The notes: a model not told the origin generated them from the sequence alone. Positions 1,402-38,328 are shown, numbered from the stretch's first letter. The stretch: 64,000 nucleotides of DNA from an uncultured bacterium (GCA_963785075.1 CAWATW010000006.1:356412-420411); one strand, 5' to 3'. Numbers and translations: made by a program.

Positions 1402-2079
1402 TCACGGTCCGCGACCGTCCGGCCATTCCTCTGGCGGGTATTCCTCACCTTGGTTTGCCGACAGACGGGCCATGTAGGCGGCGGCTTCGCTTCGTCGGTG
1501 CATGCCCATCTTGGCGAGCATGTTCGACACGTAGTTCTTCACGGTCTTCTCTGCCAGGAACATCGCCTCGGCGATCTGCCGGTTGGTCTGGCCTTCGGCG
1601 ATGTGCTCGAGAATCGTGCGTTCCTGCGGAGAGAGCCGGGCAAGCACCGGGTCCTCCGGCTCATCACCTCGAAGTCGTCTGAACAACCGCTCGGTCATGT
1701 CGGGGTCGAGGAGCGATTCGCCGCGACCGACACGACGGATCGACTCGACCAGATCCTGGCCTTTGATTCGTTTGAGAACGTATCCGGCGGCGCCGGCGAT
1801 GATGGCCGACATCAGGGCTTCCTCGTCGGCGAACGAGGTGAGAATCAGCACCTTCACCTCTGGGAACCTCTCGCGAATCTCACGGCAGACCTCGACACCC
1901 GACCCATCGGGCAGCCGCACGTCGAGCACGACGATATCCGGATCGTCGAAACCCACCCTTCGCACGGCCTCGGCTGCGGTTGCTGCGGTGCCGACCACTT
2001 CGATGTCCTCGACGGCGTCGAGCATGGCTCGTAATCCTTCTCGGACCACTTCGTGGTCGTCCACCAACAGGACTCTCAT
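1402..2079 (-). CDS. NarL/LuxR-family response regulator, DevR/DosR-like
   Basis: ORF track, 225 aa. REC domain (MRVLLVDDHEVVREGL..VLDVRLPDGSG) plus LuxR HTH (SPQERTILEHIAEGQTNRQIAEAMFLAEKTVKNYVSNMLAKMG). From memory it is colinear with M. tuberculosis DevR, including the MFLAEKTVKNYVS recognition segment. Confidence 0.85.
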   Translation of the reverse strand: MRVLLVDDHEVVREGLRAMLDAVEDIEVVGTAATAAEAVRRVGFDDPDIVVLDVRLPDGSGVEVCREIRERFPEVKVLILTSFADEEALMSAIIAGAAGYVLKRIKGQDLVESIRRVGRGESLLDPDMTERLFRRLRGDEPEDPVLARLSPQERTILEHIAEGQTNRQIAEAMFLAEKTVKNYVSNMLAKMGMHRRSEAAAYMARLSANQGEEYPPEEWPDGRGP

Positions 2080-4643: not shown

Positions 4644-4760
4644 TTCGCACCTCCGTCTCACTCCACATGCTCGCCCGATCCAACCCCCAGGAGCAGGGCG
4701 GAGAGTCATGACTGGCAGGACCAAAGACCCTACGTGAAGGCCTTTTGGATCCCACGGTGT

Positions 4761-7494: not shown

Positions 7495-8496
7495 TCAGTC
7501 CGGCGGTTGGAACCGCAGCTCGGTCGCGGGGCTGCGGCCGTGAGCAAAGTCGTCGATGTTCGTCGCGGTCGTCGCTGCGATCTCCTCCAACGCATTCCGG
7601 GTGAAGAACGCCTGGTGACCGGTGACGATCACATTCGGGAATGTCAACAGCCTGCTGAACACGTCATCGTGGATGATCCGGTCAGAAAGGTCTTCGAAGA
7701 ACAGATCGGTCTCTTCCTCGTAGACGTCGAGTCCCAGGTGTCCGACCTTTCCATCCTTCAGCCCCTCGATGACGGCCGGCGTGTCGATGAGGCCACCACG
7801 ACTGGTGTTGATGATCATCACACCGTCTTTCATGACCGAGAGGGTGTGCGAATCGACGAGATGGTGGGTCTCGGGTGTCAGAGGGCAATGAAGCGTGATG
7901 ACGTCGGACTCCTCCAGCAGCCGTTCGAGATCCACGTATTCAACTCCCAGCGCCACACAGTTCGGGTTCGGCTGCACATCGAAGCCGAGGAGTCGACACC
8001 CGAACCCACGGAGAATCTGGGCGACCGTCTGACCGATCTGCCCGGTTCCGACGATGCCGACGGTACGGAGATGGAGATCGAACCCGAGAAGACCCTCGAG
8101 CGAGAAGTTTCCCTCCCGGACTCTGGCATACGCCCGATGGATCCTCCGGTCCAAGGCCAGCATCAAAGCGACCGCATGCTCGGCCACGGCATACGGGGAG
8201 TATCCCGGGACCCTGGCCACCCGGATCCCAACGTCGGCCGCGGCCTTCAGATCCACATGGTTGTAGCCGGCCGAACGCAACACGAGGAAGCGGGTTCCCC
8301 CGGCCGCCAACAGCTCGAGGACCGCCCGCGAGGAGTCATCGTTGACGAAGATGCAGACCGCCTCACACCCCGCCGCCAACCTCGCGGTGTGCACGTCGAG
8401 GCGAGCCTCGAGAAACACGGGCTCGTGCGAGTCGCCGATCGCGGCCCCCAGATGGTCGCGGTCATATCGCTTGGTACTGAACACCGCTACACGCAT
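7495..8496 (-). CDS. ldhA: D-lactate dehydrogenase (D-2-hydroxyacid dehydrogenase family)
   Basis: Lies inside ORF 7495..8640. Start moved to ATG 8496 ([12 protein letters not shown]). From memory it is colinear with E. coli LdhA ([55 protein letters not shown]). The annotated N-terminal extension is a translated DNA repeat. Confidence 0.85.
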
Positions 8497-8577
8497 CTGG
8501 GCAGGATCGGGGCTTGCTCCCGTGACCGCAAGTCGGGAGAGGGGCTTTGAGGGCTTCGCACTTCCCTTCCCGAGTGA

Positions 8578-8612
8578 CCAGTCCCCAGTCCCCAGTCCCC
8601 AGTCCCCAGTCC
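8578..8612. repeat. perfect tandem heptamer array (CCAGTCC)x5, equal to (GGGGACT)x5 on the ldhA strand
   Basis: Read directly: ccagtcc ccagtcc ccagtcc ccagtcc ccagtcc. It lies 82-116 nt upstream of the ldhA ATG. Confidence 0.95.
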
Positions 8613-8649
8613 CCGGCGACGCGAGCCACTGCCACACCATCCATCATCA

Positions 8650-8720
8650 CCTGACGCCGCCCAACCCGAACCCACCCGCCGTCAGGACGGCATGCGGGGG
8701 TCTGGGGGTCGCCCCCAGAC
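8650..8720. repeat. ~70-nt intergenic repeat unit, copy 1, ending in a perfect hairpin
   Basis: cctgacgccgccc..gtcaggacggcatgcggggGTCTGGGGGtcgCCCCCAGAC. The 9-bp stem with a 3-nt loop is at 8700..8720. Homologous to 8932..9001. Confidence 0.85.
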
Positions 8721-8828
8721 ATGGCAGTCCCGAGGGCTTCGCTGCGCTCGCGTCTCTGGTCTCCGGTCTCCAGCCGGCGGCATCGCGAACCTCGGCTTCA
8801 CCGATCATCGTGACGTGACGCCGCCCAG

Positions 8829-8898
8829 GTCATGCGTCATGCGTCGTTCGTCTTGCGTCTTGCGTCATACGTCATACGTCATGCGTCATGCGTCTCCA
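8829..8898. repeat. tandem heptamer array (GTCWTRC)x9-10
   Basis: Read directly: GTCATGC GTCATGC GTCGTTC GTCTTGC GTCTTGC GTCATAC GTCATAC GTCATGC GTCATGC GTCTCCA. Confidence 0.95.
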
Positions 8899-8931
8899 GC
8901 ACGCGACCCGCGGCTGCACGGTGCGTCGCTG

Positions 8932-9001
8932 CCTGACGCCGCCCGACCCCAACCTGGCTCCAGTCATGACGGCAGCGGGGGTTTGGGGTCGCTCCCCAGA
9001 C
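8932..9001. repeat. ~70-nt intergenic repeat unit, copy 2
   Basis: cctgacgccgccc..cagtcatgacggcagcggggGTTTGGGGtcgctCCCCAGAC. The hairpin is kept through a G-U-compatible change relative to copy 1. Confidence 0.85.
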
Positions 9002-9126
9002 GTAGTACGTCCAACGTTCTCGTACCTCTCGGGAGGGATGCACCATGCTGGGTGGCAGGGCCGAACGGCCCTGGTGCAACCCATGCGCTGCGCTGAATAT
9101 GGCATCGAGCAGCGAGGAGGCGTGCA

Positions 9127-9549
9127 GTGGTGGTGGTGGTCGGAGTCGATGAGTCCGATCACGCCGTCTATGTGGTCGAACGAGCGATGGAAGAGGCCCG
9201 GATGAGAGATGCCGAGCTGCACGTGGTCCACGTCTTCCATCCCCCAGTTCTGCCCTACATGGGTGCCCCGATCGACATGGCTGCCGTCGCCGCGGCCCAA
9301 CGCCAAGCGGTATGGGAGCGGGTCGAGCCATTGGTCGCCAAGGCGGCCACTCCGGTCGAGCGGGTGGACCTAGAGGGGTACCCGCCGGATTCTCTGGTGG
9401 ACTACTCGCAGAATGTCGGAGCCGAGCTCTTGATCGTCGGATCGAGGGGTCGTGGCGAGTTCGCTGCACTCATCCTGGGATCGACAAGCCATCGCGCCAT
9501 CCATCTAGCTCATTGCGATGTGTTGGTGGTGAAGCCGTCGCACGCTTGA
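9127..9549 (+). CDS. universal stress protein (UspA family)
   Basis: ORF track, 140 aa. GTG start with GAGGAGG upstream. VVVGVDESDH..LLIVGSRGRGEFAALILGSTSHRAIHLAHCDVLVV is a typical USP. Confidence 0.85.
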   Translation: MVVVVGVDESDHAVYVVERAMEEARMRDAELHVVHVFHPPVLPYMGAPIDMAAVAAAQRQAVWERVEPLVAKAATPVERVDLEGYPPDSLVDYSQNVGAELLIVGSRGRGEFAALILGSTSHRAIHLAHCDVLVVKPSHA

Positions 9550-9576
9550 CCGTCTCCGCACCACCGACGCGACGCC

Positions 9577-9603
9577 GAGGGCGGCCTCCAAGAGGCCGCC
9601 CTC
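9577..9603 (+). terminator. perfect 12-bp stem hairpin downstream of usp
   Basis: GAGGGCGGCCTC-caa-GAGGCCGCCCTC, followed by cggcatttcc (weak T tract), 28 nt after the usp stop. Confidence 0.55.
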
Positions 9604-9763
9604 CGGCATTTCCGAACCGCGAACCGGCTGCGGCGGCCGATTACGGTGGGTCGGACAGCGGATCCGAAGCCATGGACGGGGGCTCGGGGCCGAGACGAGC
9701 GGCCTCGATGCAACCCACCGCCGGTCTGATCAGAATGGGCCCATCGATCCGGAAGGAGACGAC

Positions 9764-23027: not shown

Positions 23028-23103
23028 TGGCAGCCCCGACCAGGTTCGAACTGGCGTTTCCGGCTTGAAAGGCCGGCGTCCTAGACCACTGGACGACGGG
23101 GCC
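23028..23103 (-). tRNA. tRNA-Glu (anticodon UUC), CCA encoded
   Basis: Reverse complement: GGCCCCGTCGTCCAGTGGTCTAGGACGCCGGCCTTTCAAGCCGGAAACGCCAGTTCGAACCTGGTCGGGGCTGCCA. 7-bp acceptor stem, anticodon stem CCGGC/GCCGG with loop CTTTCAA, T-arm GGTTCGAACC. Confidence 0.9.
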
Positions 23104-27132: not shown

Positions 27133-29067
27133 TCAGATGTCGGAACCGGTACCCAGCCACCTTCGGTGCCATTCCAGAATGGCCTCGAAACGTTCGACCC
27201 GATGCCGCGGCTTCCCGCTGCGCGACATCTCGTGTCCCTCGCCCGGGAACCTCACCATCTCGGTCGGCGTGCCGTTCCTGAGCAACGCCGTGAAGTACTG
27301 CTCGGCCTGCTCGATCGGGCATCTGAGATCGGACTCGGCGTGGAGCACCAGCGTTGGTGTCGTGACCCGATCGACGACGGCGAGCGGGCTCCTCTCCCAC
27401 CAGGTCCGCCACCCCTCGGGATAGCCGGCTCCGAGGTAGCTCTCGGCGAAGACACCGGCGATGTCGGATGTTCCCGAGAAGCTGGTCCAGTTCAGGAGCC
27501 CCCGTTCCACGACCGCCGAACGAAAGCGGTCGTGGTGTCCGAGGATCCAGGCCGTGAGGAATCCGCCGTAGGAGCCACCCATGATCCCGATCCTCCCGGG
27601 ATCGAGGCGCGGATTGGCTTCGAGAGCGGCGTCGAGCGCCACGAGGACGTCTTCGACGTCGACTACTCCCCAACCATCGGCGGTGACCGCTTTCAAGAAC
27701 TCCTCGCCGCGGCCTGACGACCCTCGAGGGTTGCACGCGACGACCCCGAATCCGGCGGCGGCGTACACCTGGAACTCGTCGAAGAACCCGTCGCCGTACT
27801 GGCTGGCCGGGCCGCCGTGGATGTTCAGCAGCACCGGCACCCGACCATCCCCCGGCGGCATCACGACCCACGTGTCGACGTCGTGCGTGCCGGATCGGAA
27901 ATGACGGGGTTCGACCAATTCCACATCGGAGCGTATGGACTCCAACTCGGACTCACCGCCTTCGATCCACTCCAGCAGCGTTCCGGGCTCGACCGGTGAC
28001 GAGGCCGTGAACACTATGCGGTCCTCCGACACGTCGAACGAGCCTACGACCCGCCGCCCGCCGATGGCGACCTCGGTGGATCCGTCGGGCTCGACCCGGA
28101 GCACGTTCACCGATCCGGCGTCTTCGACGTAGCAGTACAGGGTACGGCCGCGCCATCGCATCTGTGGCGGTCCTCCCGCCAGTGACGCAACGGCACGGTC
28201 GACCGGAGCAGTGAGCCCCGTCAGACCGCGGTCGGACTCGACCCGATAGACCCCGAAGACCTGAGGAAACATCGGGTCGGTATGTCCGATCAGATGGAGC
28301 ACACCGTCGGGCCGGTAGCCGGGCATCGTCCAGAATCCCCGCTCGGCCCTGCGGATCGGGACCCGATCCCCGGCGATGGCGACCTCCCATACGTCCGTGC
28401 CGGCCGCGAGACCTTGCCTCGCGTGGCGATCGGAGACGAACGCCAGCGCAGATCCGTCCGGAGACCACGCCAGATTGCGGTCGTCATGGGGCCCGGGGGT
28501 GACACAGTCCGGTTCGGCGACGCCTTCTGGGTCGACCAGCCAGATGTGACGTTTCCGGTCGTGGGTCCAGCCCATTTGATCGAACCTGTACGGGATCGAG
28601 GTGACGCGTCGCGGTCTACCAGCTCGCTCGTCGTCATCGAGGTCGGCCCAATCGTCGTGCCATGTGATTGCGGTCACGGCGAGACGGCTGCCGTCCGGCG
28701 ACCATTCGAGCTCCTCGACGCCGAGGTCGAAGTCGGTGATGGCCGCCGCCTCGCCCCCATCGACCGGGATGACCGCCACCTGCGCCGGCTTTGAATCGCG
28801 GCTTCGGAGAAAGGCCAGACGGCTGCCGTCCGGCGACCATCGGGGTGCCGAGTCAGCTGGTCCTCCGGTCAGCCTGCGGGCTCCGGAGCCGTCATGGATC
28901 CATATCTCGCGTACATATCGATCCTCGTCGAGATCGATGGAGGTCAGGACGAACACGACCCGGTCACCGTGGATCCGAGGATCGCTGGGTGTGACGAGCT
29001 TGGAGAGATCAGAAGGTTGCACGTCGGACAGGGTATAGCCCCGAGCAACGAGCAAGAACGTGCCCAC
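27133..29067 (-). CDS. S9 prolyl-oligopeptidase/acylaminoacyl-peptidase family serine peptidase
   Basis: Lies inside ORF 27133..29175. Start moved to GTG 29067 (TTG 29055 is also possible). N-terminal PD40/beta-propeller repeats (PRWSPDGSRLAF, LEWSPDGSRLAV, LAWSPDGSALAF). C-terminal GGSYGG nucleophile and HGESD-type LVLHAESDLRCP. Confidence 0.85.
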   Translation of the reverse strand: MGTFLLVARGYTLSDVQPSDLSKLVTPSDPRIHGDRVVFVLTSIDLDEDRYVREIWIHDGSGARRLTGGPADSAPRWSPDGSRLAFLRSRDSKPAQVAVIPVDGGEAAAITDFDLGVEELEWSPDGSRLAVTAITWHDDWADLDDDERAGRPRRVTSIPYRFDQMGWTHDRKRHIWLVDPEGVAEPDCVTPGPHDDRNLAWSPDGSALAFVSDRHARQGLAAGTDVWEVAIAGDRVPIRRAERGFWTMPGYRPDGVLHLIGHTDPMFPQVFGVYRVESDRGLTGLTAPVDRAVASLAGGPPQMRWRGRTLYCYVEDAGSVNVLRVEPDGSTEVAIGGRRVVGSFDVSEDRIVFTASSPVEPGTLLEWIEGGESELESIRSDVELVEPRHFRSGTHDVDTWVVMPPGDGRVPVLLNIHGGPASQYGDGFFDEFQVYAAAGFGVVACNPRGSSGRGEEFLKAVTADGWGVVDVEDVLVALDAALEANPRLDPGRIGIMGGSYGGFLTAWILGHHDRFRSAVVERGLLNWTSFSGTSDIAGVFAESYLGAGYPEGWRTWWERSPLAVVDRVTTPTLVLHAESDLRCPIEQAEQYFTALLRNGTPTEMVRFPGEGHEMSRSGKPRHRVERFEAILEWHRRWLGTGSDI

Positions 29068-29107
29068 GTCGGTCGCGTTCCAGCTTGTTGCCTGGCGGGC
29101 TCGGCGC

Positions 29108-29144
29108 CCGGTCCGAGGTCCGGGGTCCGAGGTCCGAGGTCCGG
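29108..29144. repeat. tandem heptamer array (NRGGTCC)x5, equal to (GGACCYN)x5 on the peptidase strand
   Basis: Read directly: ccggtcc gaggtcc ggggtcc gaggtcc gaggtcc, then GGTCCGgacttCGGACC, which can fold as a hairpin. Lies 41-77 nt upstream of GTG 29067. Confidence 0.9.
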
Positions 29145-29277
29145 ACTTCGGACCCGAACACCAAACGGGAGACAATCACCACGATCCGTGCGGTCGGCGG
29201 CACGGACATCGGACCCGAAGGCCCAAACTCCAAACCGGCGCAGCAACCAGCCCGGGGTCGCGCTGTAGCCTCCTGCT

Positions 29278-29733
29278 GTGCATCGACTCATTGCCACCTG
29301 GTTCGGGACCGGGCTGATCCTCGGCAAGTTGCGAGGGTCCGACAGCGGTTCGGGCACGGTGGCTTCGGTGTTTGCCATGCTGGTGTGGTGGGCGCTCACG
29401 CCGTTCGAATGGTGGGTGCAGTTCGTCGTTGCACTGGTCGTGGCCGGGCTGTCGTTGTGGTCGGCCCGTCCGTTTGCAGGTGCGCACGCCGATCCGCCTT
29501 GGGTGGTGATCGACGAGGCGGCCGGCGCGTTGATCGCCACGATCGGCCTCACCGGATGGCCGGTGGTGGCGGCATGGTGTGTGTTCAGGCTCGCCGACAT
29601 CTTGAAACGAGTCTTCCCCGGGGTCGCTGCCGCCGAGAAGCTCCCCGGCCCGATCGGCGTCACCGCCGACGATCTCGTTGCGGGCCTCTACGGTCTCGCT
29701 GCCGGCTGGGCCGTTCAGTGGGCGCTGGCATAG
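29278..29733 (+). CDS. pgpA: phosphatidylglycerophosphatase A
   Basis: ORF track, 151 aa (GTG start). Contains WFGTGLI..GSGTVASV and VVIDEAAG..FRLADILK, typical of PgpA. Confidence 0.8.
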   Translation: MHRLIATWFGTGLILGKLRGSDSGSGTVASVFAMLVWWALTPFEWWVQFVVALVVAGLSLWSARPFAGAHADPPWVVIDEAAGALIATIGLTGWPVVAAWCVFRLADILKRVFPGVAAAEKLPGPIGVTADDLVAGLYGLAAGWAVQWALA

Positions 29734-35206: not shown

Positions 35207-36187
35207 TCACTCCAGGGCCGGGAGAACCTCGGCCGCAAACAGCTCCAAGCCGGATGTGTCGTGGCCCGCCTCGGCGAAGTAGCAGATCGCATAGCTCATA
35301 CCTGCCCCGACCCAGGGTTCCAGCTTTTCGACGAGCTGCCCCGGGGTCCCGGAACACTCCGCGAACATCGCCCTCACCTTGGCGGCCCGATCGGCGTCGA
35401 CGTACCGGCCGTAGTGAGCTTCGATCCAGTCGAGACGTTTGGCGACCTCGACCTCGGTGGGCTCACACACGACATTGAAGTTCGACGATCGCACGATCGC
35501 TGTGAAGTCCCTTCCCACGTCGGAACAGTGGCCGTCCAGCACCTCGGACTTGTGTACGAACTCCTCGAGATCCACTCCGAAATTCGTGTAGTCGGCGTGT
35601 CGGGCTGCCACGTTGAGCGTGAGTTGCTCCCCTCCCCCTGCGATCCACAGCGGGACGTGAGGGTCCTGGACCGGTTTGGGTTGGCAGATGGCCCCGTCGA
35701 GCGTGTAGTACTTCCCGTCGTAGCTGACCTCGTCCTCGGTCCACATGCGGCGCATGATCTCCACTCCCTCGCGGAGCTGACCGATCCGCACCGACGCCTT
35801 CGGGAACTCGTATCCGTATCCGAGGTACTCCTTCTCGTACCATCCGGCGCCGATACCCATCTCGAGCCGTCCGTTCGAGATCACGTCGATCGTGGCAGCC
35901 ACCTTCGCCAGATAGGACGGTGGCCGGTAGGAGTTGCAGGTGCACATCTGCCCGAGGCGAACGGTCGACGTGACCGCCGCCAACGCTCCCATCAGCGTCC
36001 ACGCCTCGTAGGTGACCTCCTGGGTCGCAACCGGGACCGTGTGGAAGTGGTCGTACACCCACGCCGACTCGTAGCCGGAGGCCTCGATGGTCGTCGCCAC
36101 CGCCGTCATGGTCGCCCAATGCCGATCACGGTCGATGTCGACGAGGTCGAGTCGCCAACCTTGCGGAACGAATGCGCCTGCTCTCAT
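35207..36187 (-). CDS. luciferase-like monooxygenase (LLM) class, probable F420-dependent oxidoreductase
   Basis: ORF track, 326 aa. Contains ESAWVYDHF, LGQMCTCNSYRPPSYLAK, LEMGIGAGWYEKEY and PLWIAGGGE. Confidence 0.8.
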   Translation of the reverse strand: MRAGAFVPQGWRLDLVDIDRDRHWATMTAVATTIEASGYESAWVYDHFHTVPVATQEVTYEAWTLMGALAAVTSTVRLGQMCTCNSYRPPSYLAKVAATIDVISNGRLEMGIGAGWYEKEYLGYGYEFPKASVRIGQLREGVEIMRRMWTEDEVSYDGKYYTLDGAICQPKPVQDPHVPLWIAGGGEQLTLNVAARHADYTNFGVDLEEFVHKSEVLDGHCSDVGRDFTAIVRSSNFNVVCEPTEVEVAKRLDWIEAHYGRYVDADRAAKVRAMFAECSGTPGQLVEKLEPWVGAGMSYAICYFAEAGHDTSGLELFAAEVLPALE

Positions 36188-36223
36188 AGGCAGAGCCTAC
36201 GGCCTCCACCGGAGGTCGTTGAG

Positions 36224-36293
36224 CAGTCGTCCGGTCTCCGGTCGCCAGTCCCCGGTCTCCGGTCCCCAGTCCCCAGTCGCCGGTCCCCGGTCC
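36224..36293. repeat. tandem heptamer array (CCRGTCN)x10
   Basis: Read directly: CAGTCGT CCGGTCT CCGGTCG CCAGTCC CCGGTCT CCGGTCC CCAGTCC CCAGTCG CCGGTCC CCGGTCC. Lies in the 202-bp divergent region between the LLM gene and the S9 peptidase gene. Confidence 0.92.
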
Positions 36294-36389
36294 ACCGCCC
36301 ACGTTGGATCCACGATCGCCGTCCACGTTGGCCATCGCCAGAGCCGCCTGCGTCGACTTCCGATCGGTCAGGGGCAGTAGCCTCGCGGG

Positions 36390-38328
36390 ATGCCCAACCC
36401 GCTCACCGCTGAAGCTCTCTGGACTATTCCACGGGTGGGGACGCCGACCGTGGCCGGGGGCCGCATCGTCGTGCCGGTCACCACTGCCGACGTCGACGCC
36501 AACACCACCGAGACGACGTTGTGGGAGGTGTTCGCAGACGGCCGCTCCGCCCGGACGCTCACCGCCTCGAACGCTTCTCGCCCTTCACTGTCGCCTGACG
36601 GGAGCCGGTTGGCGTTTGTGCGCAAGGTGGACGAGCGCCGACAGATCCATGTGATGCCGATGGACGGCGGCGAGGCGACTGCGCTCACGGATCTTCCCCT
36701 CGGCGTGATCGGCGCCAAGTGGTTCCCGTCGGGAGAGTCCGTCGCCGTCCTCGCCCTGGTGTTCGACGAGCACCCGGACATCGAGGCGTCCCGGGTGGAG
36801 CGCGATCGGCGTGCCGAGCAGAAGCACTCCGCCAAGGTCAGCGACCGAGCGGTCTTCCGGTACTGGGACCGATGGCTCGACGGAGGTGAGGTGCCACACA
36901 TCTTCAAGGTGGACGTGGAGGGCGGGCACGGCACCGATCTCACCCCGACCTCACGCCGGTGGATGAGGTGGGACAACACCTTCGACCCGCTCGACGACGT
37001 CGACATCTCTCCAGACGGCCGGTTGCTGGCGTGGTGCGCCGACAGGTCGGAGTTCCCGCATGGCGAGATCCGATGGTCGCTGTTCACCACCGATGTGGGG
37101 TCGCTCGCTGAGCGTTCGCTGACACCGGAACACGAGGGGCATGCTTCCCATCCCCGCTTCGACCCTGCGGGTGGCGCCGTCGTGTACGGGCGCACGGAGG
37201 ATCCACACTTCTACGCCGACCGCGTGCACCTCATCCGCCACGACCTCGGCTCCGGTTCCGAGACCGATCTCACACCGGACTGGGATCGATCGCCGACCAA
37301 CTGGTTCTTCGACGGCGCCGATCTGGTCATGGAGGCGGAGGACGATGCCCGGCAACCGCTGTGGCGTTTGACCGAGGACGGCGCGATCGGCGAGGTTGCC
37401 CGGCAGGGGACCATCTCCGGAACGTCGCGGCTCGGGGAGCGACGCTACGTCGCTGTGCGGAGCACCATCGTCAGTCCACCCGAGGTTGTGATGGTGGGCG
37501 ACGGGGTGATCGACCCGCTCAGCGATTTCACGACTCGATCCCTGGCGGACCGCGACCTCCCGACGGTGTCGGAGTTCCGGTTCATCGGCGCCGCCAACCG
37601 AGAGATTCAGATGTGGGTGGTCACGGCCGCCGGTGCGCCGGCAGGGCCCGGTCCGGTCGTCCACATGATCCACGGAGGCCCCCACGGGGCATGGACCGAT
37701 GTATGGCACTGGCGGTGGAACCCGGCCGTGTTCTGCGGATCGGGCCGTCGAGCCGCTCTCGTCAACTTCCACGGCTCCACATCGTGGGGCCAGAGATTTC
37801 GCCGCTTCCATTCGAGGGGAGTGGGGCGACAGGCCGGCAGCCGACATCGAAGCCGCCACGGATCGGTTGATCGCCGAAGGCATCGCCGACCCCGAGCGAA
37901 TCGCCATCGCCGGCGGCTCGTACGGAGGCTATCTCGTGGCGTGGCTCGTGGGTCGAACCGACCGCTACGGCTGTGCGGTCGCGCACGCCGCAGTCACAGA
38001 CCTTCCCAACATGTACGCCTCTGACGTCACCTCGGGACGGGCCGACGCATACGGCGCAGAGGTCTGGACCGACCTCGAGCGCGTGAACCGCTGGAGTCCC
38101 GCCGCCCACGCCAGTGGCTACTCCACTCCGACGTTGGTCATCCATGGCGAGAAGGACTACCGGGTGCCGGTCGGCCAGGGTCTCGAGCTCTACGGAGTCC
38201 TCAAGGCCAAGGGAGTCGAGGCTCGCCTGGTCTACTACCCGGACGAGAACCATTGGATTCTCACACCCGCCAACTCGATCCATTGGTACGGCGAAGTGAC
38301 CGACTGGATCGCTCGGTTCACCGATTGA
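36390..38328 (+). pseudogene. S9-family serine peptidase interrupted by a single extra nucleotide (or sequencing error) near 37794
   Basis: ORFs 36390..38024 and 37699..38328 are offset by +1. Frame 1 reads VNFHGSTSWGQ, then Arg-rich nonsense. Frame 2 continues DFAASIRGEWGDRPAADI..IAIAGGSYGGYL..VIHGEKDYRVP. Removing a37794 restores GSTSWGQDFAASIRGEWG. Confidence 0.8.

Follow-up and report, generated by a model that had tools for sequence, protein, structure and literature searches.

We consider it likely that the five perfect GGGGACT heptamers upstream of the D-lactate dehydrogenase gene ldhA are a strain-specific, recently homogenised heptanucleotide repeat that arose by slippage in a hypervariable spacer. 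The array was studied within the window, by which we mean the whole 64,000-nt stretch of DNA from an uncultured bacterium analysed here. A sequence-only reading of the window had described the array, raised slippage and identity with the STRR1 unit, and taken the heptamers for DosR half-sites; its factual parts, the slippage and the STRR1 identity held up, whereas the half-site array found little support.

Array and candidate ldhA promoter

On the plus strand the array reads (AGTCCCC)5 from 8580 to 8614 with zero mismatches, corresponding to (GGGGACT)5 on the minus strand, which carries ldhA. TRF recovered the five perfect units noticed in the sequence-only reading (100% match); the range originally given for them, 8578-8612, is 2 nt off the GGGGACT phase. 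The features of the array and its immediate neighbours are as follows.

8578..8614, minus strand: heptamer array 1, (GGGGACT)5; TRF period 7, 5.3 copies, 100% match, score 74
7495..8496, minus strand: ldhA, D-lactate dehydrogenase, 333 aa; Pfam 2-Hacid_dh (from residue 3) and 2-Hacid_dh_C
8497..8531, minus strand: putative leaderless ldhA core promoter; -35 TTGCGG (8526-8531), 17-nt spacer, -10 GATCCT (8503-8508), 6 nt, ATG
9127..9549, plus strand: universal stress protein (USP) gene by domain match, divergent from ldhA

Relative to the ldhA ATG (8496), array 1 occupies positions -84 to -118. Its head-to-tail 7-nt copies surpass the three to four that characterise heptanucleotide long simple sequence repeats (LSSRs) or STRR-type repeats, and they are beyond chance: the window contains four period-7 tracts of at least three copies, versus 0.0 when the window was simulated 100 times with a first-order Markov model.

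A protein search returned relatives at graded LdhA identity, the best of which are Acidimicrobiia MAGs. They comprise L081 and L082 (contigs of 469 and 553 kb; LdhA 95% identical), L099 (85%) and L096-L098 and L100 (80-83%). Among the matches returned, LdhA is 52-59% identical to LdhA of other bacterial phyla, enterobacteria included. The source annotation apparently extends ldhA to 381 aa (P0123, identical in sequence to the frame at 7495-8640, minus strand), beginning at ATG 8640 and translating through array 1. The relatives begin at the Met equivalent to ATG 8496, and Pfam coverage together with all relatives indicates that the 381-aa call is over-extended and that the true start is M49 (8496).

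A scan of 8400-9200 with sigma-70 and terminator consensus patterns gave no match, so our promoter assignment is based on conserved geometry. The succession TTGCGG/TTGCCA, 17 nt, GATCCT/GAACCT, 6 nt and ATG is kept in L081 and L096 even though the sequences have diverged, and ldhA has no Shine-Dalgarno in any lineage compared. TANNNT 6-8 nt before a start codon that lacks a Shine-Dalgarno is also frequent among neighbouring genes. Many genes carry a -10-like TAGCCT, TAGGCT or TAGACT exactly 6-8 nt 5' of the start and no Shine-Dalgarno (for example at 36176-36187, 36377-36392 and 29268-29280 in the window, and at gene starts in L081, L095 and L096), a pattern from which leaderless mRNAs would seem to be common in the lineage. 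From the conserved layout we infer that the ldhA transcript would be leaderless, with its core promoter downstream of array 1. Lying upstream of this putative promoter, at -84 to -118, the array would be dispensable for core promoter function.

Composite ldhA-USP spacer

Array 1 sits within a 630-bp divergent spacer (8497-9126) between ldhA on the minus strand and the USP gene on the plus strand. This spacer has a modular layout: every heptamer array is followed by a module of ~110 bp (CGCGAGCC...CCTGACGCCGCCC...CGTCAGGACGGCA.GCGGGGGTCTGGGGGTCGCCCCCAGA), of which there are two complete copies and a partial one. The parts beyond array 1 are listed in order.

8615..8722, plus strand: module copy 1, with two palindromes and a C-rich tract (8660-8677)
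8752..8771, plus strand: heptamer array 2, GTCTCYG x2.9 (TRF)
8784..8826, plus strand: module copy 2, partial, 5' 43 nt only; repeat family D2
8829..8894, plus strand: heptamer array 3, GTCATGC-type x9.4, with units GTCATGC, GTCTTGC, GTCATAC and GTCGTTC
8895..9002, plus strand: module copy 3, 82% column identity to copy 1

Two further families of internal duplication run through the spacer: D3 (8588-8663 versus 8752-8827, 71%) and D7 (GAGGGCTTCGC at 8549 and 8732). A 164-183-bp internal duplication makes arrays 1 and 2 paralogues, and array 3 is the orthologue of a GCGTCNT array in L081 and L082. The presence of five identical units beside degenerate sister arrays points to recent expansion of one variant of an RGTCNCC family, although selection could also account for their perfect identity.

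The module contains the palindromes CCGTCAGGACGG and TCTGGGGG-TCG-CCCCCAGA. At ~110-115 bp per copy it behaves as a VNTR: copies number 5.9 in L081 (9199-9876), 1.9 in L082 (5267-5485), ~2.5 in the window, where they have diverged, and three or more in L099 (1-330). It was seen at the ldhA-USP locus only. A metagenome scan with a 22-nt degenerate module core detected no dispersed family; its 12 matches all cover the pattern alone and are hence attributed to chance. We also considered the module as a structured RNA and rejected this reading, as folding z-scores of -0.5 and -0.9 for DNA/RNA were no better than those of shuffles. No Rfam family matched the spacer. The sole Rfam or ARAGORN match anywhere in the window is a tRNA-Glu (UUC; 23028-23103, minus strand).

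In two different spacers, the stretch that separates the heptamer arrays from the downstream plus-strand gene carries ACGT-rich motifs similar to the palindrome CAACGTTG (9000-9030 and 36297-36333 in the window, 9137-9188 in L081 and 9870-9895 in L095). Examples are GTCCAACGTT, CCACGTTGG (twice) and GTCAACGTTGTACGTTCAACGTGG. In L081, a 21-bp unit, TACGTAGAACGTTGGACGTAC, occurs in 2.5 copies. These motifs may be sites for another regulator.

Heptamer arrays across the lineage

Array 1 is accompanied by at least four 7-nt arrays with other units in the window: arrays 2 and 3 in the same spacer (8752-8771 and 8829-8894) and two at distant loci.

29110..29143, plus strand: GGTCCGA x4.9 (TRF), in the divergent spacer between a peptidase S9 and a PgpA gene
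36230..36293, plus strand: nine-unit heptamer array (CCGGTCT, CCAGTCC, CCGGTCC and others), flanked by divergent genes for an F420-type LLM oxidoreductase and a PD40 peptidase

The genes around these two distant arrays are unrelated to hypoxia, and the unit AGTCCCC is common to the array at 36230-36293 and array 1. Seven is the sole tandem period in the window among periods of 4-12 nt, and likewise the only one in L081 and L095, while L082 has mostly period 7 plus one 6-nt tract. Period-7 tract density per Mb is ~62 in the window, 71 in L081 and L095 together and 95 in L096, values that refer to ~64 kb of this genome and ~80 kb of relatives and are not genome-wide; 1.55 Mb of unrelated bacterial loci gave 3.9 per Mb. 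These control loci came from the genome-contig scan with LdhA, in which all matches were at most 66% identical, and were used for taxonomy as well. In the sample of ~150 kb, the abundance of arrays, their mostly intergenic location and the preference for period 7 are those of LSSRs.

All arrays examined are intergenic, and the three array-bearing spacers of the window (8497-9126, ~28784-29277 and 36188-36389) are all divergent (promoter-promoter) regions. In the relatives' gene calls only ~24% of junctions are of this type, and three of three against this expectation hints at some link with promoters. A GTC core shared by all heptamers was tried as a protein-binding signature and discarded, as the CGAGCAA, GACAGCC and CTCGTAG arrays lack GTC.

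Turnover among relatives

L081 and L082 have conserved gene order around ldhA and no GGGGACT array. Beside ldhA they instead carry four copies of GGGTCTT that continue in register into seven copies of GCGTCNT, followed by the 115-bp module in tandem (5.9 and 1.9 copies, respectively). In L095 (same relative), the orthologue of the array at 36230 has 6.4 units, versus nine in the window, and another composition that includes (GTCTCCG)4; the array at 29110 is missing, and CGAGCAA is present in 4.6 copies where the window has two (29041-29058). L099 shows three copies of GACAGCC plus CAGCCGA/CGGCCGA heptamers, with a module after each, up to the point at which its contig stops within the repeats. 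At the far end of the series, the USP-ldhA spacer of L096-L098 and L100 measures 152 or 115 bp and contains neither heptamers nor module. Heptamer arrays, including CTCGTAG x5, do occur in other spacers of L096, which, with the series of relatives, makes heptamer richness a trait of the wider clade. In L082, the genes for LdhA, PPDK, the P-type ATPase, Pyridox_ox_2 and MeaB are in fragments, most likely owing to indel errors in a long-read assembly and not to true pseudogenes.

The GGGGACT array is thus absent from the orthologous ldhA promoter in L081, L082 and L096-L100, that is, in all relatives examined. The composite repeat at the ldhA-USP locus arose within the subclade of at least 85% LdhA identity, and, among the relatives examined, the GGGGACT allele is private to the window's strain. 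Polymorphism of this kind, between strains and in both copy number and unit, is another LSSR property. The search for it in related strains had been proposed with the slippage idea, and the differing orthologous arrays, the 4.6 versus two CGAGCAA copies and the module counts bear that idea out.

Copy-number variation between strains, in orthologous arrays as in the 115-bp module, and the slippage-prone nature of a perfect five-unit tract would also suit a contingency locus, at which ldhA expression is switched or tuned within a population as 7-bp units are added or removed. We think this improbable. The array lies upstream of the conserved -35/-10 elements and not between them, and the 381-aa frame spanning it results from an over-extended gene call; given the putative promoter at 8497-8531, the repeat is neither in the true reading frame nor between -35 and -10, the two placements typical of phase variation. 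Steps of 7 bp are moreover out of helical phase, and no fixed upstream site is known. The proposed phase variation through promoter spacing is therefore unlikely for a tract upstream of the putative -35, and a classical on/off switch is unlikely for a tract outside both the core promoter and the true reading frame.

DosR-type regulator and DosR-type boxes

The window encodes a close homologue of the mycobacterial regulator DosR/DevR 6 kb from array 1, and two DosR-type boxes stand out.

1402..2079, minus strand: DosR/DevR-type response regulator (NarL/LuxR); best match DevR (PDB 3c3w)
9058..9071, no strand assigned: palindromic DosR-type box GGGCCGAACGGCCC, within the longer palindrome CAGGGCCGAACGGCCCTG (9056-9073), upstream of the USP gene
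4717..4730, minus strand: second DosR-type box GGGTCTTTGGTCCT, upstream of a CBS-domain (hrp1-like) gene

Among solved structures, DevR (3c3w) matches the regulator with E=4.7e-65, ahead of VraR at 1e-43. The claim that it carries the recognition segment of DevR was correct: FLAEKTVKNYVS is identical in the two proteins, which amounts to the same recognition helix. The surrounding cluster (response regulator, GAF-HisKA_3 kinase, P-type ATPase, CBS-domain protein, USP, Pyridox_ox_2 and pyruvate phosphate dikinase) likewise resembles a DosR regulon in content, as had been pointed out.

The M. tuberculosis DosR/DevR box is reportedly a 20-bp palindrome with the core GGGACTnnAGTCCC (Park et al. 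2003), with PDB entry 1ZLK as the complex. Boxes of this inverted kind occur at conserved positions in the lineage. The USP box is the sole zero-mismatch match to GGGNCNWWNGNCCC in the window, and it is kept as GGGTCGAACGGCCC in L081/L082 and as GGGCCTTCCGGCCC in L096-98 at equal distance to the USP start; the 130 nt upstream of USP are nearly invariant among the window, L081 and L082. From its centre, the USP start (9127) follows after ~63 nt and the transcription start predicted from a putative -10, GAATAT (9095-9100), after ~43 nt; this -10 reads GAATAT or GAATGT among lineages. About 43 nt upstream of the transcription start is the typical position of M. tuberculosis DosR boxes. The CBS box, GGGTCTTTGGTCC(C/T), is kept in three lineages, being found also in L081 (13764-13777) and in L096 (12422-12435, GGGTCTTTGGTCCC). 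In L096, the relative at 80% identity, GGGACTTGTTTCCC lies upstream of Pyridox_ox_2, and ahead of this gene (9281-9331) the CTCGTAG x5 array directly abuts the DosR-type box TAGGGACTTGTTTCCCTC; the window's equivalent spacer (9550-9763) contains neither the CTCGTAG array nor the box.

The boxes before the USP, CBS and L096 Pyridox_ox_2 genes indicate that DosR-type boxes of the lineage are of the ordinary inverted-repeat kind, their half-sites being GGGAC, GGGTC and GGGCC. Neither the canonical palindrome GGGACnnnnGTCCC (60 observed versus 89 expected) nor the looser GGGNCNWWNGNCCC (15 versus 13.6) is enriched in the window overall, so only the conserved positions before the USP and CBS genes carry weight. 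On this conservation, the palindromes before these two genes are likely true DosR-type boxes of the cluster.

Against this background, the DosR homologue might bind the five direct GGGACT repeats of array 1 and activate or repress ldhA. The regulator's proximity and its shared recognition segment speak for this, as does the GGGAC core in every unit of array 1, which matches the lineage's half-sites and is the likeness to the M. tuberculosis box; the GGGTCTT next to ldhA in relatives, too, holds a half-site-like GGGTC. The location at -84 to -118 fits an upstream activator site. In addition, the single ldhA-USP box of the repeat-free relatives lies ~88 nt from the ldhA ATG, compared with 562-575 nt in the window, and binding to the array could compensate for the displacement of this ancestral shared box to ~570 bp from ldhA by repeat expansion. 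Such a move keeps the half-site reading alive, at a low probability.

We nevertheless regard binding of this kind as quite unlikely. A DosR box consists of inverted GGGAC(T)-type half-sites ~4 bp apart, as does every conserved box here in its orientation, whereas the half-sites of array 1 are direct at 7-bp spacing, and no GGGACnnnnGTCCC match with up to two mismatches overlaps the array. It is not conserved at orthologous promoters, unlike the USP and CBS boxes, and is missing in all relatives examined, including those with 95% identical LdhA. GGGNC is missing from further arrays of this and other spacers, heptamers of unrelated units also stand beside genes that have no tie to hypoxia, and GGGACnnnnGTCCC-type matches are not enriched in the window. 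Close relatives without the array and the many fast-changing heptamers of the lineage mean that array 1 is probably not a conserved regulator-binding site. The half-site interpretation, then, finds little support in direct repeats that relatives lack and that stand apart from the conserved, canonical palindromic boxes.

G-quadruplex potential and the STRR1 unit

Array 1 provides five GGGG tracts with 3-nt ACT loops and so has the sequence of a G-quadruplex (G4), i.e., at least four tracts of at least three G with loops of 1-7 nt. A functional G4 is conceivable in which the G-rich ldhA sense strand folds upon opening of the divergent promoters and modulates transcription of ldhA or USP. The window contains only four G3+N1-7 x4 motifs, two of which lie in the ldhA-USP spacer, both on the minus strand, and in vitro, oligonucleotides of (GGGGACT)4 adopt an antiparallel G4 whose T1/2 in KCl is >95 C (PMC4692102). 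By analogy with this stable folding, a side effect on ldhA is possible. A functional role is unlikely all the same: the potential is not conserved, as relatives have GGGTCTT on the other strand or units without G-tracts, the majority of the lineage's heptamer arrays are unable to form a G4, and the published folding concerns oligonucleotides in vitro rather than duplex DNA in vivo. The second strong G4 motif of the spacer, GGGTGGGTTCGGGTTGGG (8660-8677, minus strand), belongs to module copy 1, 46 nt from array 1, and is absent in copy 3.

The unit of array 1 is also that of STRR1, which we take to be the name for GGGGACT (CCCCAGT in another phase). It is identical to the GGGGACT of Nostoc PCC 7120, in which GGGGA(C/T)T repeats occur at 89 sites (Rehm et al. 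2015, PMC4692102), and descent or horizontal transfer from cyanobacterial STRR1 could account for this. We hold this to be extremely improbable. The host is not a heterocystous cyanobacterium, its best relatives being Acidimicrobiia MAGs; nothing foreign is seen in the flanking DNA, and gene order agrees with that of relatives, which for the repeat-free ones argues for a local origin of the array and not for transfer. AGTCCCC is, furthermore, one variant (RGTCNCC) among drifting local units, and identity over 7 nt is easily convergent, as shown by the local CCGGTCC, which equals a Geobacter heptamer. The identity of the unit with STRR1, noted previously, is thus correct (PMC4692102). The accompanying remark that it would be unexpected in this genome does not stand, because heptanucleotides are the commonest long repeat class in several high-GC bacteria.

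Probable origin of the array

The preferred explanation, a repeat born by slippage, can be laid out as a series of steps. Replication slippage, in an Acidimicrobiia-like member of the Actinomycetota prone to 7-nt intergenic tandems, would generate the array. The spacer between the divergent ldhA and USP promoters would have grown from a repeat-free state of 115-152 bp, as seen in the 80-83% relatives, and in the subclade of at least 85% identity it would have come to be occupied by composite units that join a heptamer array to a ~110-bp module. These units would duplicate, expand and contract while the heptamer drifts (GACAGCC, GGGTCTT, GCGTCNT, GTCTCCG, AGTCCCC), and array 1 would be the paralogue in which the AGTCCCC variant swept five units. 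Such an array is most likely near-neutral to selection, as we infer, but its effect on spacing and the ability of the ldhA sense strand to form a G-quadruplex may have side effects.

A bolder variant is that expansion of a GGGAC-containing unit, after displacement of the box to ~570 bp, gave ldhA a new input, either a G4 switch or a platform to which DosR binds multivalently and with low affinity. We rate this as very unlikely. If true, slippage-prone heptamers would supply the variation from which a hypoxia regulon is quickly rewired, a case of regulatory innovation through slippage that the data do not require.

Comparison with known repeats

Mycobacterial MIRU/VNTR are intergenic minisatellites. 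The 115-bp module can be likened to them by its copy-number behaviour only (5.9, 1.9 and ~3 copies in three strains), and differs in being seen at one locus. The M. tuberculosis DosR box, as set out above, is an inverted pair and so differs from the non-conserved, direct 7-bp repeats of array 1, the lineage having separate palindromic boxes of its own.

The STRR1 repeats of Nostoc share with array 1 the identical unit, the tandem and intergenic arrangement, variable copy number and G4 formation in vitro. They come from a different phylum with a different GC content, and in the window GGGGACT is a minority among heptamer types. Only 9% of the Nostoc GGGGA(C/T)T repeats lie between divergent ORFs, where G-rich heptamers are under-represented in both Xanthomonas and Nostoc (PMC4692102). 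In Geobacter metallireducens, four-fold heptanucleotide elements of GGACCGG/GGGACCG occupy 49 sites (PMC2700814). These are likewise dispersed GC-rich heptamers in about four tandem copies, and GGACCGG is the reverse complement of the CCGGTCC found at 36230-36293; they form, however, a conserved, BLAST-matching multicopy family that is often located within genes, whereas the window's arrays vary by locus and strain.

The closest parallel is with prokaryotic LSSRs as described by Mrazek, Guo & Shah (2007), in the accounts given in PMC4679880 and PMC4692102. In these accounts, heptanucleotides are the most abundant LSSR class in many genomes, including Actinobacteria and several high-GC bacteria, and polymerase slippage is proposed as their cause (Mrazek 2007, via PMC4679880); Nostoc and Xanthomonas are genera with documented heptamer repeats (PMC4692102). 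The arrays described here agree with them in the head-to-tail 7-nt units, the mostly intergenic location, the large number of arrays per genome and their differing units, the occurrence in high-GC free-living bacteria including Actinobacteria and the ascription to slippage. They differ in being embedded with a ~110-bp module and, in our small sample, in being confined to divergent promoter regions. The heptanucleotide-repeat class would thereby extend to an uncultured Acidimicrobiia-like lineage that, to our knowledge, has not previously been described for heptamer-repeat richness, and the ldhA-USP spacer offers a natural series for the birth and turnover of repeats near promoters, from repeat-free spacers of 115-152 bp through composite repeats to strain-specific units.
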